Shown: positions 3,001 to 54,123 of the stretch, one piece after another | Numbering within the stretch: the stretch's first letter is position 1 | How the letters are laid out: the number at the start of each line of letters is the position of its first letter | Virus record (IMG/VR): IMGVR_UViG_3300032092_000005 | Span: 88,321-152,320 of that record | Length of the DNA: 64,000 nucleotides | Reading direction: 5' to 3' (one strand) | Origin: a virus | The notes under the pieces: generated by a model | Database searches by the model: none | Told to the model about the DNA's origin: nothing | What the model saw: only the letters and a program-made list of their open reading frames with translations | Program-made: the position numbers and the translations under genes

Positions 3001-5303
3001 GTGCTATTCTTACACAACAACAAACTAACCCTGCTACAGGCAGAGTTTTAGATACTTCTGTTCAACACACTATGCGTAGCCGTGATATTATTGTATCTGC
3101 AAATGGATTAAAAAATTCTACTAGACTGTACTTCTATTTTGATGGTATGGATGTTACTGCTAATACTACTCCGATATCAATAAGTGGAACAATTTCTGAC
3201 ATTTATGAAACATTTGATGCTAATGGATTTCTTCCACAAACATCTGCATTATTCACTAGACAAATTGCAGGAGAAACTGGAATTACTTCAGCTAATGGTA
3301 AATTTACTGGCATTTTTAGAGTTCCGGCAGATAAATTTAATGTTGGTGCAAGAGAATTTAAAATTTCAGATAAATCTACTTACGGCGACACTTCAGAATC
3401 TTCTTATGCTAGATGTGTATTCTATGCACAAGGATCGTCTATAACAAGTACTAGCAGCATTTTAGACACAAGACCTACTAATAGATTATCAAATAAATCT
3501 TTAGTTTCTTCGTTAGAAAAAGACGTTGAAAGTGGCACAGCTACAAGAATTATTGATCCTCTGATTCAAACATTCACTGTAGACCCAAGCACATACACTA
3601 AAGGTATGATGGTAACTTCAGTTGATTTATTTTTTGCAGCAAAACCAACTACATCCTCTACTGATGGCGTGACTTTAGATATTAGAGAATATGATTACGT
3701 TAGCAAAGCACCATCTCGAAATATTATTGGAAATCAAATTGCTAGATTAGAGAATAGTTCAATTAATGTTAATACGAATCCTACGTCAAGCACTCCTAGT
3801 ACGTTTACATTCTCTAATCCTATATATTTACAACCTGGTAAAACATATTGCATTGCTATTAAGCCTGATGGCAATAATCCTGCATATAAATTGTGGATTG
3901 CAGAAGCTAATCAAAGAGACTTATCATCTTCGACAATTACGAATAGATATGTTACATTAACTTCACAGACTGAATTGTGGACACCATCGTCAGGTGGAAA
4001 ATGGACAAAATCAACTACTAAAGACTTAAAGTTTGCAGTAAAAATTGCTCGATTCTTTGATCCTAAATTAGTAACATCTAAAAGAGGTGTTGCAGTATTA
4101 AACAATATGCCAATTTCTAATACAATTAGTGGCATTACTTATACTGGAATATATCCAAATGTTGAAGATTTATCTTTGTCTGCTACTGAAATTGCATATG
4201 AAATAGCACAAGCTAATGCTTCATCTTCATCTGTTTCTACTTTCACTCAGATTAAAAATTTAGAACTTATTAAAAATAGCGTCCTATATCAGATATCTAA
4301 CACTGCAACAGAATTTACTGGTGGATTTAAATCATTAAAAATTCGCGCATCACTTAGAACCGATGATGCATATGTTTCTCCATATATTGATTTGCAAAGA
4401 ATTAATTGTGCGTTGACTAAAAATGAAATTAATGATTCACTATATGCTACTGTAACAGGTACTGCTGAATTGAGTTCATCTAGTAATGTTGTTATTGGAT
4501 ATGGAACAACATTTAGCACAGAGCTTGCTGGTGTGAAATATATTAAAACATCGACAAATGAATACCGTCAAATTATCAGTATCAGTAACAATTCATACTT
4601 AACTGTTGCAAACAATTTTAATACGACTTCTAATGGAGTATCAATATATTACAATACTGAAGATAATCCAGTAGGACCACACACAGCATTAAGTAGATAT
4701 ATCACAAGAGTTGTTACATTGAATGATGGATTTGATTCTTCAGACTTAATTGTGTACTTAGACGTTAATCGCCAGAAGACTACTGATATTAAGGTATACT
4801 ATAAGATATTGAATAGCGCAGATCAGGATGCGTTTAATGATAAATTCTGGACAGAAATGAGTTTAGAAGGTCTTAAAACATTTGCAACATCTCCTAATGA
4901 CTACTCGCTGCAAAAATATGTAGTACCACAGTTTGGTAAAAAGATAGTACTATTAACTGGAACTGCAAATACTAATACTACTACTGCTGCAATAGTTGGA
5001 ACAGGCACATTGTTCACTGAGCAACTGAAAGCTAATGACACTATTGCACTTGGATTAAGTAAGACTCAAGGTATTGTTTCAAGTATTTCAAATAATACCT
5101 ATATGACATTGCAATCTGTTCCTGCTGCTAACACTACAGGACAAGACATATATAGATCAATGGAAAATACTATTACATATACTACACCTAATGGTATAAC
5201 ATACAGTGGATTTAAATCTTTTGCAGTAAAAATAGTATTTTTGTCTAGCAATATTTGCAATATTCCTAAAGTTAAAACTGTTAGGGCAGTCGCTTTAGTA
5301 TAA
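3..5303 (+). CDS. Large baseplate/virion structural protein, DUF4815 (VrlC-like); 5'-truncated by the window edge
   Basis: Frame 3 is open from base 3 (GSALTIGAG...DNAQGSPNFQAPGADRLKI), so the gene starts before the window. Motifs APGADRLKI, RTYEESGDY, DCLDFRP, RRYTMRD and a C-terminal FAVKIV are typical of this T4-like myovirus family. Confidence 0.8.
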   Translation, partial: GSALTIGAGIVYIAGHFVNRDSQTIVLDKYTNTPSYKVGLVPNVEFVDSIDDFSLVDNAQGSPNFQAPGADRLKITTTLKKYDLNDDVVLDSFVSYVEIDEGTIRKRKTIEIGGQIEDAIAQRTYEESGDYTLNDPIIAAREHLINGDNRGRYTLGQGGDNELLIINVDPITAYVSGYRYETVGKAEVNIRKGTDTQYNEQVKTQLAFGGGINVKEVVGAWDINQGTKVDIYNTFQTAISNTTFASTTVAGTKIGTARIKSLEFVSGTPGISTAVYNFYLYDIAMLASADFSTARSFYLPGSPAKFADIVLDDLGRAVLSDATFDKLIFKLPYSATKTLRDTNNNIESGFYFKSEKSFTFTSGSATLNSTDASETFEGTGALTVSQKNNNYYLVPTTTSNTAALTGTVAIAASSNVVVGTGTTFSSQFNVGDVIRVNSLDRIVGAISNATHMTLTTTHTGATANTYSKSFPAGKPISLSGFGTYGSGVRSATVGTGGASITIDIAENIAPDAKLIASMARSNAREKSKLLSYGNEVYIQANTHPIGITGPWSLGKGDVITVRAIYQANNFASVPTTANTNVTAYYTLNNGQTDNTYEHATLSPINGTIPTGRLLVVFDSYNHNTTQGTGYFSIDSYPINDSIDSNTTITTSEVPVYISKKTGDTYNLRDCLDFRPIKTANTTAINPIDPETYQIPTTGSVGLHIPTPDSDFDADLIYYKGRKSRLYLDQDGEFKINDGPALDQDSTSPAAIPGTLQLAELTIPPYPSLISGVGITPFKNRRYTMRDVGSIEQRVFDLEAYNLMNSAEKQVVNTVIVDSVTGVDKLKNGLLVDVFTGHNTADVNSPLYKASIDRHNNCVTAYSNNEMQIALAYNTAGSSGVTKTSGKKLMLAYTQIVSTANQYFVTSNTIISDIPSNFVGDLSLFPSTDNWLNTTRVPGKDLANDPTGQLDNWKIRADAWNTEINPAVRYFIGDNPTVRSLESTGVVSSSVSSSTVSALNSAILTQQQTNPATGRVLDTSVQHTMRSRDIIVSANGLKNSTRLYFYFDGMDVTANTTPISISGTISDIYETFDANGFLPQTSALFTRQIAGETGITSANGKFTGIFRVPADKFNVGAREFKISDKSTYGDTSESSYARCVFYAQGSSITSTSSILDTRPTNRLSNKSLVSSLEKDVESGTATRIIDPLIQTFTVDPSTYTKGMMVTSVDLFFAAKPTTSSTDGVTLDIREYDYVSKAPSRNIIGNQIARLENSSINVNTNPTSSTPSTFTFSNPIYLQPGKTYCIAIKPDGNNPAYKLWIAEANQRDLSSSTITNRYVTLTSQTELWTPSSGGKWTKSTTKDLKFAVKIARFFDPKLVTSKRGVAVLNNMPISNTISGITYTGIYPNVEDLSLSATEIAYEIAQANASSSSVSTFTQIKNLELIKNSVLYQISNTATEFTGGFKSLKIRASLRTDDAYVSPYIDLQRINCALTKNEINDSLYATVTGTAELSSSSNVVIGYGTTFSTELAGVKYIKTSTNEYRQIISISNNSYLTVANNFNTTSNGVSIYYNTEDNPVGPHTALSRYITRVVTLNDGFDSSDLIVYLDVNRQKTTDIKVYYKILNSADQDAFNDKFWTEMSLEGLKTFATSPNDYSLQKYVVPQFGKKIVLLTGTANTNTTTAAIVGTGTLFTEQLKANDTIALGLSKTQGIVSSISNNTYMTLQSVPAANTTGQDIYRSMENTITYTTPNGITYSGFKSFAVKIVFLSSNICNIPKVKTVRAVALV

Positions 5304-52886: not shown

Positions 52887-52915
52887 TTGACAAACGTTGA
52901 AAAATATGAGATAAT
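52887..52915 (+). promoter_or_regulatory. sigma70-type promoter
   Basis: TTGACA-17 nt-GATAAT with an extended TG. Confidence 0.75.
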
Positions 52916-52979: not shown

Positions 52980-53207
52980 ATGGCATTTGTAAAATCAAAC
53001 AAAACTCAGGCAGAACTCTTGATATCGTATTTGCGCGGCAAGGGCCGTGGCATTACTGCACCTCAAGCTAACGCATTGTTCGGCGTAAAGAATCTACGCG
53101 CACGTATGAGCGACCTCCGCATGGAAGGCTTCAAGGTTCGCACTTCTCTAAACACAGAAGGACGTACAAAATATTACGTATCACGCCGTAAAATCGGTCA
53201 AGCCTGA
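52980..53207 (+). CDS. Small winged helix-turn-helix DNA-binding protein
   Basis: TQ..L...L....GIT..QA..LFGVKNLRARMSDLR.EG..V pattern. Confidence 0.75.
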   Translation: MAFVKSNKTQAELLISYLRGKGRGITAPQANALFGVKNLRARMSDLRMEGFKVRTSLNTEGRTKYYVSRRKIGQA

Positions 53208-53215
53208 TATAAATA
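53208..53215 (+). promoter_or_regulatory. Late promoter TATAAATA (structured leader/hsp20)
   Basis: Exact consensus. Confidence 0.75.
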
Positions 53216-53220
53216 ATAAT

Positions 53221-53420
53221 TCTCAGGGATGGGAAGATAGGCTGGTACCCTATTCAATCACTACCAAAGAACCCACCTTAGGGCTGTTGTCGCCAACGGT
53301 AATTGGCGTCCGAGCAATTGAACTGCACCGCGTTAGTGTGCCCTGTATAAAGTAAGCAGGACAATCCGCATTGCCTTCGGGGGTGCATACAAAACTTAAC
53401 TCGCTTAATAGGAGAAAACT
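53221..53420 (+). ncRNA. Structured cis-regulatory RNA leader of hsp20 (manA-motif-like candidate plus ROSE-like thermometer)
   Basis: GC-rich non-coding island with several hairpins, potential pseudoknots, a C(UUCG)G tetraloop and UCGCU pairing with the AGGAG SD. Confidence 0.6.
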
Positions 53421-53915
53421 ATGACAGACTTTAAAATCGGTAAAATCTCATTTGGTCCAGCATTCAAAGACTTTGATAAATATTTCGTAGGCTTTGAAGA
53501 TCAACTGAACCACATGCAAAAGCTTCACGCTGATGTAACAAAACACATTCCCGGATATCCTCCATACAACATCAAGAAGACTGGTGATAATACATACAGT
53601 ATTGAACTTGCGGTTGCTGGATTCGCACAAAGCGAAATTGATATCGAAATTGATGATGGTAAACTTATCGTCAAAGGCAATGTAGCTTCAAAAGAAAATG
53701 AAAAAGAAGAAGACTTCTTATTCAAAGGTATTGCTAATCGTGGGTTCACTCGCGCATTCGCTATCGCTGATCAATTTGAAGTTAAAGACGCAGAGCTATT
53801 CAATGGTATGCTAAAGATCGTTTTAGATCGTTTGGTGCCAGAAGAAAAGAAGCCAAAAAAAGTGCCAGTAAAGACTAAAGGCAGCAAGCAATATTTGACG
53901 GAAGAAGATTTATGA
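53421..53915 (+). CDS. hsp20: Small heat shock protein (IbpA/Hsp20)
   Basis: YPPYNI, IELAVAGF, KGIANRGF.R.F, A.L.NGML. Confidence 0.95.
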   Translation: MTDFKIGKISFGPAFKDFDKYFVGFEDQLNHMQKLHADVTKHIPGYPPYNIKKTGDNTYSIELAVAGFAQSEIDIEIDDGKLIVKGNVASKENEKEEDFLFKGIANRGFTRAFAIADQFEVKDAELFNGMLKIVLDRLVPEEKKPKKVPVKTKGSKQYLTEEDL

Positions 53916-54099: not shown

Positions 54100-54123
54100 G
54101 GGTGCCACTCGGCACCCATTTTT
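54100..54123 (+). terminator. Rho-independent terminator
   Basis: GGGTGCC-ACTC-GGCACCC followed by ATTTTT. Confidence 0.8.

Follow-up and report, generated by a model that had tools for sequence, protein, structure and literature searches.

A modular, pseudoknotted leader RNA ending in a predicted ROSE-like thermometer module precedes hsp20 in T4-like phages

Introduction

In ROSE-like RNA thermometers the Shine-Dalgarno (SD) sequence is paired to a U(U/C)GCU motif, with a bulged G, in the 3'-proximal hairpin (PMC3669281). The IbpA protein of E. coli binds the structured 5' UTR of ibpA and represses its own translation, an activity for which residue R93 is indispensable, to which R97 and K98 contribute, and which has been linked to an aromatic residue at position 34 (PMC10474464). 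Phage T4 offers an example of autoregulation through a leader that combines a 5' pseudoknot with an A/U-rich stretch, that of gene 32 (PMC3014915).

The phage gene hsp20, described as a core gene of T4-like cyanomyophages, is also present in pelagiphages and methylophages. A literature search found no paper that links cyanophage hsp20 to a thermometer, describes its leader or deals with hsp20 control. The comparison of leaders presented here indicates that hsp20 carries what appears to be a bacterial-type ROSE-like thermometer behind a late promoter, cultured phages included, and that in a large group of uncultured phages this predicted thermometer is preceded by an uncatalogued multi-pseudoknot RNA.

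Results

The DNA analysed (64,000 nt; the window) forms the final 64 kb of a virus record from IMG/VR that is 152 kb long, has a completeness rating of 85% and derives from a T4-like phage. Around the leader lie clamp-loader genes and the genes for RegA (PF01818), a ferritin-like protein, a 75-aa winged-helix ORF (Pfam PF14090), hsp20 and DNA polymerase. The hsp20 gene behind the leader (53421-53915, + strand) encodes an IbpA-like small heat-shock protein (sHSP; Pfam PF00011, E = 5.7e-17) 42% identical to E. coli IbpA, the value for phage Hsp20s overall being 41-44%. The gap between the stop of the winged-helix ORF (53207) and the start of hsp20 (53421) is 213 nt and contains no + strand ORF; its sequence is enriched in G+C, at 0.47 compared with 0.38 for the 152-kb genome. 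The initial annotation had called the stretch non-coding and G+C-rich, and the sequences it quoted are all present at their positions. Two candidate reading frames were rejected: a 36-aa ORF on the minus strand (53278-53388), which spans helices with compensatory changes and indels not divisible by three, and the AUG inside GGGAUGGGAA, from which the relatives would read small ORFs of 3-12 codons, unrelated in sequence and with no spaced SD. The window contains no tRNA or tmRNA genes, and a tRNA-like origin of the leader was likewise rejected.

A T4-type late promoter, TATAAATA (53208-53215, + strand), directly precedes the leader, with a predicted +1 near 53221; the octamer occurs 11 times in the window, always on this strand. 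Where it is present in relatives, the late promoter precedes an invariant GGGAUGGGA by 18-21 nt, and in most such forms the first hairpin begins 4-7 nt past the octamer, which puts it at or close to the predicted +1. In many relatives no late promoter stands in front of the array of pseudoknots or its first module, M0; the leader there starts right after the upstream stop codon, and the 5' hairpin therefore does not coincide with a transcript end in every case. Further upstream, a sigma-70-like promoter (TTGACA, 17 nt, TG-GATAAT; 52887-52915, + strand, 11 of 12 matches) precedes the winged-helix ORF; transcripts from it would include the leader as an intercistronic element. An intrinsic-terminator-like hairpin and T run (54100-54117, + strand) closes the hsp20 unit and is the sole site of its kind, none being found inside the leader (53208-53420).

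Relatives of the leader were gathered from two sources. A search of IMG/VR with the Hsp20 protein gave 430 related loci, of which 80 were kept, and a scan with the 16-mer of the last hairpin gave at least 120 further loci; together they provided at least 141 distinct leaders, found in front of hsp20 operons in uncultured T4-like phages. Nearly all of the 141 distinct leaders listed precede hsp20, or a 74-aa ORF and then hsp20. Distant relatives can be aligned to the whole of the leader, with 70-76% identity, and most of them share its last 20-25 nt unchanged. A scan of bacterial genomes with the 15-mer of hairpin II (below) was discarded as having no firm bearing on hosts: among the matches listed, 119 of 120 were chance matches in coding DNA, the 15-mer pattern being too short. 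The one real match lies in a 48-kb contig (L265) binned with the MAG of an uncultured Aquiluna (actinobacterial), which carries the full leader and hsp20 and scores 116 bits on the covariance model described next; this contig probably represents phage DNA that was placed in the bin of a possible host.

Covariation among hsp20 leaders, which the initial annotation had proposed as a check, supports the stems in two independent sets, of 23 and 55 leaders. The first, A1, consists of the 23 window-like leaders, modelled with seven nested helices and three pseudoknot helices, 47 pairs in all. Standard pairs fill 94.6% of its 1015 cells, compared with 36-43% when the partners are slid by 1-3 columns, and compensatory change on both sides is seen at 22 of the 47 pairs. 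The covariation score of 0.348 compares with at most 0.075 for slid controls and 0.125 for shuffles, none of 500 shuffles reaching it. The second set, A4, comprises 55 leaders that lack the pseudoknot PK2 and do not overlap with A1; they were aligned separately because a covariance model of the A1 type misaligns helix H4 in leaders without PK2. Here 98.6% of cells are paired as against 37-51% in slid controls, with 12 compensatory pairs, and when PK3 and PK4 are added the figures become 99.9% and 21-51%. The covariance model built from A1 finds a single copy in the window (53214-53423; 202 bits, E about 5e-60). In six phage records, of which four have a completeness rating of 100%, it likewise finds one copy each, at the hsp20 locus. 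The nested minimum free energy (MFE) of the leader is no better than that of shuffles (z = +1.07; both strands tried), and the case accordingly rests on covariation and not on predicted stability; nested MFE is uninformative for a pseudoknotted RNA. A single-sequence pseudoknot finder places 38% of leaders above the 95th percentile of their shuffles, a weak test that is useful only for listing covarying stems. On this comparative evidence the region 53216-53420 is a real, conserved structured RNA, and its fold is modular, consisting of M0, PK1, M2, PK2, a core of H4 and H5 with PK3 and PK4, and a two-hairpin ROSE-like module.

The first module, M0 (53221-53235, + strand), is a small 5' hairpin (53221-23/53227-29) with the invariant GGGAUGGGAA (53226-35); its 3' arm is fixed and its 5' arm varies (AUCCC, GUCCC, UUCCC, UCUC). 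In 1.39 Mb of related loci, 84 of the 90 occurrences of GGGATGGGA lie at most 300 nt upstream of a ROSE-like hairpin, and the 152-kb genome has this sequence once. PK1 (53236-53266, + strand) is an H-type pseudoknot, with stem 1 at 53237-41/53249-53, stem 2 formed by 53243-47 and 53262-66, and an A-rich third loop. Both its helices had been noted initially, as the hairpin ATAGG/CCTAT and the pairing of TGGTA with TACCA, and both held. Stem 1 is 100% paired in A1, with compensatory change in 4 of 5 pairs; stem 2 keeps its topology with at least 12 different sequence pairs, among them GGCA/TGCC, GACA/TGTC, GGAGG/CCTTC, TGAGG/CCTCA and CCTGTG/CACAGG. The two stems can differ wholly in sequence between relatives, topology and A-rich third loop being what is kept.

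M2 (53272-53283, + strand) is a 3-bp hairpin, CCC/GGG (53272-74/53281-83), with an invariant ACCUUA loop; its outer pair is C-G in 13 leaders and U-A in five, and 92.8% of its cells are paired. It is followed by PK2 (53284-53310, + strand), made of stem 1 (53284-87/53296-99), where variation is one-sided (C-G/U-G), and stem 2 (53289-93 with 53306-10), which is 91% paired with 2 compensatory pairs. In some relatives whole hairpins are inserted in the third loop of PK2. The hairpin CGCCAA/TTGGCG of the initial annotation survives in part: its outer three pairs are conserved, as PK2 stem 2, and its inner three are not, being 25-60% paired.

A long stem joining 53221-33 to 53272-83, also proposed there, fared worse. 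Neither side varies, and as many as 8 of 18 leaders cannot form the outer three pairs; the inner seven pairs can form in all 18 leaders that have both strands, with no covariation, and they compete with the M2 hairpin, for which C-G to U-A compensation is on record. Within this stem GGGAUGGG (53226-33) is complementary to CCCACCUU (53272-79), with one A.C mismatch, and would offer an alternative to the local M0 and M2 hairpins; in the window its computed stability exceeds that of these two hairpins by 2-4 kcal/mol. Among relatives, the M0 and M2 motifs are each found without the other.

The core is doubly pseudoknotted. PK3 and H4 occupy 53311-53341 (+ strand): the H4 stem pairs 53325-28 with 53338-41, and the first four bases of its loop (53329-32) pair with CGAG at 53311-14. 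H4 is 100% paired in A1, with compensatory change in all four pairs, and PK3 is 97.8% paired with 2 compensatory pairs, and is supported in A4 as well; its variants include CGAG/CUCG, CGGG/UCCG, CGUG/CACG and CGUA/UACG, the window itself carrying one A.G mismatch. ACCG (53327-30), which had been assigned as the partner of a CGGT loop, is part of the covarying H4 stem and its loop and changes without any change in CGGT, so that this pairing falls. PK4 and H5 occupy 53322-53360 (+ strand): the H5 stem, which abuts H4, pairs 53342-46 with 53356-60, and AGU in its loop (53351-53) pairs with ACU at 53322-24, just 5' of H4. H5 is 100% paired with 3 compensatory pairs. PK4 is also 100% paired, its inner pair being U-A, C-G or G-C as aligned, with U-A and C-G seen in A1; in six further leaders the inner A faces a U displaced by the alignment, read by eye as A-U. 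The CCTG/CAGG hairpin of the initial annotation is borne out (100% paired, 3 compensatory pairs); PK2 stem 1, PK3, PK4 and the H4 hairpin are helices that it did not include.

Several nucleotides are unpaired and yet invariant across leaders that differ freely in their stems: GGGAUGGGAA, the ACCUUA loop, the bulged G in hairpin I and GUAA in the loop of H5. A search of the phage genome for antisense partners of the invariant motifs gave none. Contacts of the M2 loop with the H5 loop (ACCUUA with UAAGGU) and with the H4 loop were rejected as general features, since in each case the sequences are complementary in subsets only, with no covariation.

The 3' module consists of two hairpins. Hairpin I (53368-53386, + strand), recognized initially as a C(UUCG)G-capped hairpin and fully upheld, has a UUCG loop, a GCC/GGG top, a conserved bulged G (53373) and a covarying lower stem; it is 100% and 96% paired in A1 and A4 respectively, with 3-4 compensatory pairs, and its loop in relatives may also be GAAA, GUAA, AAAU or AUUU. 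Hairpin II (53400-53414, + strand) pairs CUC-G-CU with AG-GAG across a UAAU loop, leaves G 53403 bulged and encloses the SD sequence AGGAG (53410-14). Its stem is near-invariant over about 140 distinct leaders listed, with one AGGGG variant, while its loop varies in length and sequence (UAAU, GAAA, six- and seven-base loops). The computed dG of hairpin II is -4.65 kcal/mol at 4 C, -3.07 at 20 C and -1.40 at 37 C, and the hsp20 AUG lies unpaired 6 nt past it. The span initially annotated takes in the pseudoknot region and cuts off this ROSE-like SD hairpin, the part with the clearest function.

As in ROSE-like thermometers, a U(U/C)GCU motif faces the SD with imperfect pairing, a stable hairpin stands upstream and an sHSP gene follows. 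The ROSE_3 model (RF02523) scores the window at 12.9 bits (E = 4.7), short of its gathering score of 43, and this low score counts against a ROSE-like thermometer; short-form relatives score higher, L052 at 39.9 bits and phage Melnitz at 34.1, both below the same threshold. An hsp20 preceded by the short form is found in three cultured phages, Synechococcus phage ACG-2014f (L331), Methylophilales phage Melnitz (L330) and Pelagibacter phage HTVC008M (L329), where it is made up of the late promoter, hairpin I and the SD hairpin, with CUCGCU, CUUGCU or CUUUGCU facing AGGAG. This putative thermometer is absent from the annotation of the three records, and the literature search found no paper on it. 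A RegB-type nuclease, from which a hidden GGAG might be protected, gave no PF10715 match; control genomes were equally without one, which makes the result uninformative.

The array is separable from the hairpins that follow it. About 30 of the 141 leaders listed are short, with the two 3' hairpins alone directly behind the late promoter, and this is the form of the cultured cyanophage, pelagiphage and methylophage relatives; about 100 carry the core. M0, PK1 and PK2 are each optional. The converse arrangement is seen in L052, in which a core (M2, PK2, PK3/H4 and H5; 2540-2665) without hairpins I and II lies 3' of a rubredoxin-like ORF and 5' of a 76-aa ORF that belongs to no known family and has an unpaired SD, the hsp20 of the same locus having its own late promoter and short leader. 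The arrangement in L052 implies that the array has a role independent of the thermometer.

The gene upstream of the leader varies among relatives (the winged-helix ORF, a 60-70-aa ORF, a rubredoxin-like ORF) and the operon downstream is constant. The winged-helix ORF of the window is inserted between the ferritin-like gene and the leader, in the place where most relatives have a 60-70-aa ORF starting MLKFEL... In about half of the relatives, though not in the window, a 72-76-aa ORF lies between leader and hsp20 (e.g. L004:2766-2990); it has no significant Pfam match and stands behind a long leader in 47 of 48 cases. One relative, L114, has six tRNA genes near the hsp20 locus (99-613 and 3535-3607, minus strand).

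Could the array be a free-standing small RNA, or a structure at the 3' end of the upstream message, that lies before hsp20 by chance? In many relatives it starts a few nt past the upstream stop codon, in many a U-rich stretch follows hairpin I, and in L046 and L052 a late promoter stands between array and hsp20. In the window, however, hairpin I has no following T run and the leader no terminator-like site; across relatives it is the upstream gene that differs and the downstream operon that stays the same; and a search of the phage genome gave no complementary target. We consider such an origin very improbable.

Comparison with catalogued families gave no match at gathering score anywhere in the window, and Rfam scans of the window and nine related loci gave no ribozyme or riboswitch family. 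The initial suggestion of a new structured element is upheld in so far as this is a conserved RNA that matches no family in Rfam 15. Its other suggestion, kinship with the manA RNA (RF01745), concerns an orphan structured RNA with a suspected pseudoknot. T4-like cyanophages are reported to carry manA, among other places in front of ibpA-type chaperone genes (PMC2864571), and the leader stands in such a context, directly before the HSP20 (PF00011) gene of a T4-like phage. The manA covariance model, unlike its genomic setting, does not fit: the whole window contains no match that reaches the gathering score, the region 53100-53500 gave none at E <= 10, and nine related loci, three cultured phages among them, gave none at E <= 1 (cmscan). 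Membership of the manA family is barely credible.

The initial annotation had also considered a riboswitch- or ribozyme-like identity, and this looks unlikely. In its most specific form the idea would make the core (M2, PK3, PK4, H4, H5) an aptamer for a metabolite or ion, acting with the thermometer. Compactness of fold, invariant unpaired nucleotides and strong covariation are all as in known aptamers, the RNA lies in cis before a single operon, and the GGGAUGGG/CCCACCUU helix, with its computed advantage over the local hairpins, might serve as a switch. Other observations speak against it. No pairing of the core with hairpin I or II was seen, nor any that would compete with the SD hairpin, and the spacer between core and hairpins is variable; in L052 the core precedes an SD that is unpaired; the window leader has no terminator-like platform; no family matches; M0 and M2 each occur alone, and modules are optional and interchangeable between relatives; and no metabolite is obviously tied to a holdase chaperone. 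We rate the aptamer as quite improbable.

The array, alone or together with hairpins I and II, might instead be an operator to which the IbpA-like Hsp20, or another phage protein, binds; by analogy with E. coli IbpA, Hsp20 would repress translation from its own leader until titrated by misfolded proteins. Aligned with IbpA and IbpB, the phage Hsp20s have R at the positions of IbpA R93 and R97 and Y at that of Y34; in IbpB, which is without this activity, the arginines are not retained and Q stands at the R93 position. The R93-dependence of IbpA autorepression, together with the retention of R93, R97 and Y34 equivalents in the phage proteins, makes the chaperone the best candidate partner. Invariant loop and bulge nucleotides would suit sequence-specific recognition, each of the six phage records has a single copy of the RNA, which in every case lies at the hsp20 locus, and T4 gene 32 is a phage precedent. 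Against this, the phage proteins have A or S where IbpA has K98, the structures that IbpA is reported to bind are of the thermometer type and not pseudoknots, and short leaders without the array show that it is not required for feedback of this kind. We judge an operator unlikely on present evidence.

Discussion

The reading that we tentatively prefer, with confidence a little short of even, is that 53216-53420 is a cis-acting leader of hsp20 in which an SD-hairpin thermometer acts as the gate and the pseudoknot array as an accessory, protective or scaffolding, fold. The leader would be made from the late promoter at 53208 and would also form part of the longer transcripts that start at the early-type promoter (52887). 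Translation of hsp20 would be gated at the last hairpin, whose computed dG suggests marginal stability and opening as temperature rises. The array would not itself sense a small molecule; its most likely role would be to give the message a nuclease-resistant, autonomously folding domain, either 5' or intercistronic, and it would also prevent the thermometer hairpins from pairing wrongly with sequence upstream of them. Melting, stability and protection of the leader are all inferred here.

Among roles for the array we infer that an accessory fold is the most likely, an Hsp20 operator less so and a riboswitch least. The accessory role is placed first because in PK1 shape and not sequence is kept, because the modules are optional, and because the predicted thermometer stands without them in relatives. 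The invariant unpaired nucleotides count against a role that is purely steric or protective, and suggest tertiary contacts or recognition by a partner. That the core is a sensor, whether feedback operator for Hsp20 or ligand aptamer, and not a passive fold, is a proposition we find somewhat unlikely. Were it so, the leader would join two inputs, temperature at the SD hairpin and a second signal at the core, and the switch could run through the alternative GGGAUGGG/CCCACCUU pairing.

Being small and modular, and existing in hundreds of natural variants, the leader RNA is a candidate for structural and functional study. If it proved to be an operator for a chaperone, or a ligand sensor, it would represent a new class of phage gene control; if protective, as in our preferred reading, it would be an example of serial pseudoknots stabilising the message of a bacterial virus.

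The array, which contains as many as four pseudoknots supported by covariation, is uncatalogued and has no described counterpart. Tandem pseudoknot domains are known from the upstream pseudoknot domain of the tobamovirus 3' UTR and from flavivirus exonuclease-resistant RNAs. These share with the phage array the arrangement of autonomous pseudoknots in series in an untranslated region of a viral message; they differ in belonging to eukaryotic viruses, in their position and in having no likeness to it in sequence, and a protective role for the phage array would be by analogy. The T4 gene 32 leader (PMC3014915) resembles the present one as a T4-type mRNA leader with an H-type pseudoknot far 5' of the start codon and an A/U-rich linker before the ribosome-binding site; there is no relation of sequence or gene, the hsp20 leader has four pseudoknots and an SD hairpin, and binding of its own product is hypothetical.

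For the 3' module, as judged by sequence, the closest described system is the short ROSE-like ibpA thermometer. Like the ROSE_3 element of Pseudomonas ibpA and that of E. coli ibpA, the phage module lies in the 5' UTR of an IbpA-type sHSP gene and has a G+C-rich hairpin I followed by a weak hairpin II. It differs in that its hairpin II is 1-2 bp shorter, in that expression is driven by a phage late promoter and not by sigma-32, and in the approximately 150 nt of pseudoknots that precede it, to which ROSE elements have no counterpart. Its CUCGCU and AGGAG are letter-identical to those of the last hairpin of E. coli ibpA and to the ROSE_3 consensus, and the bulged G is common to all.
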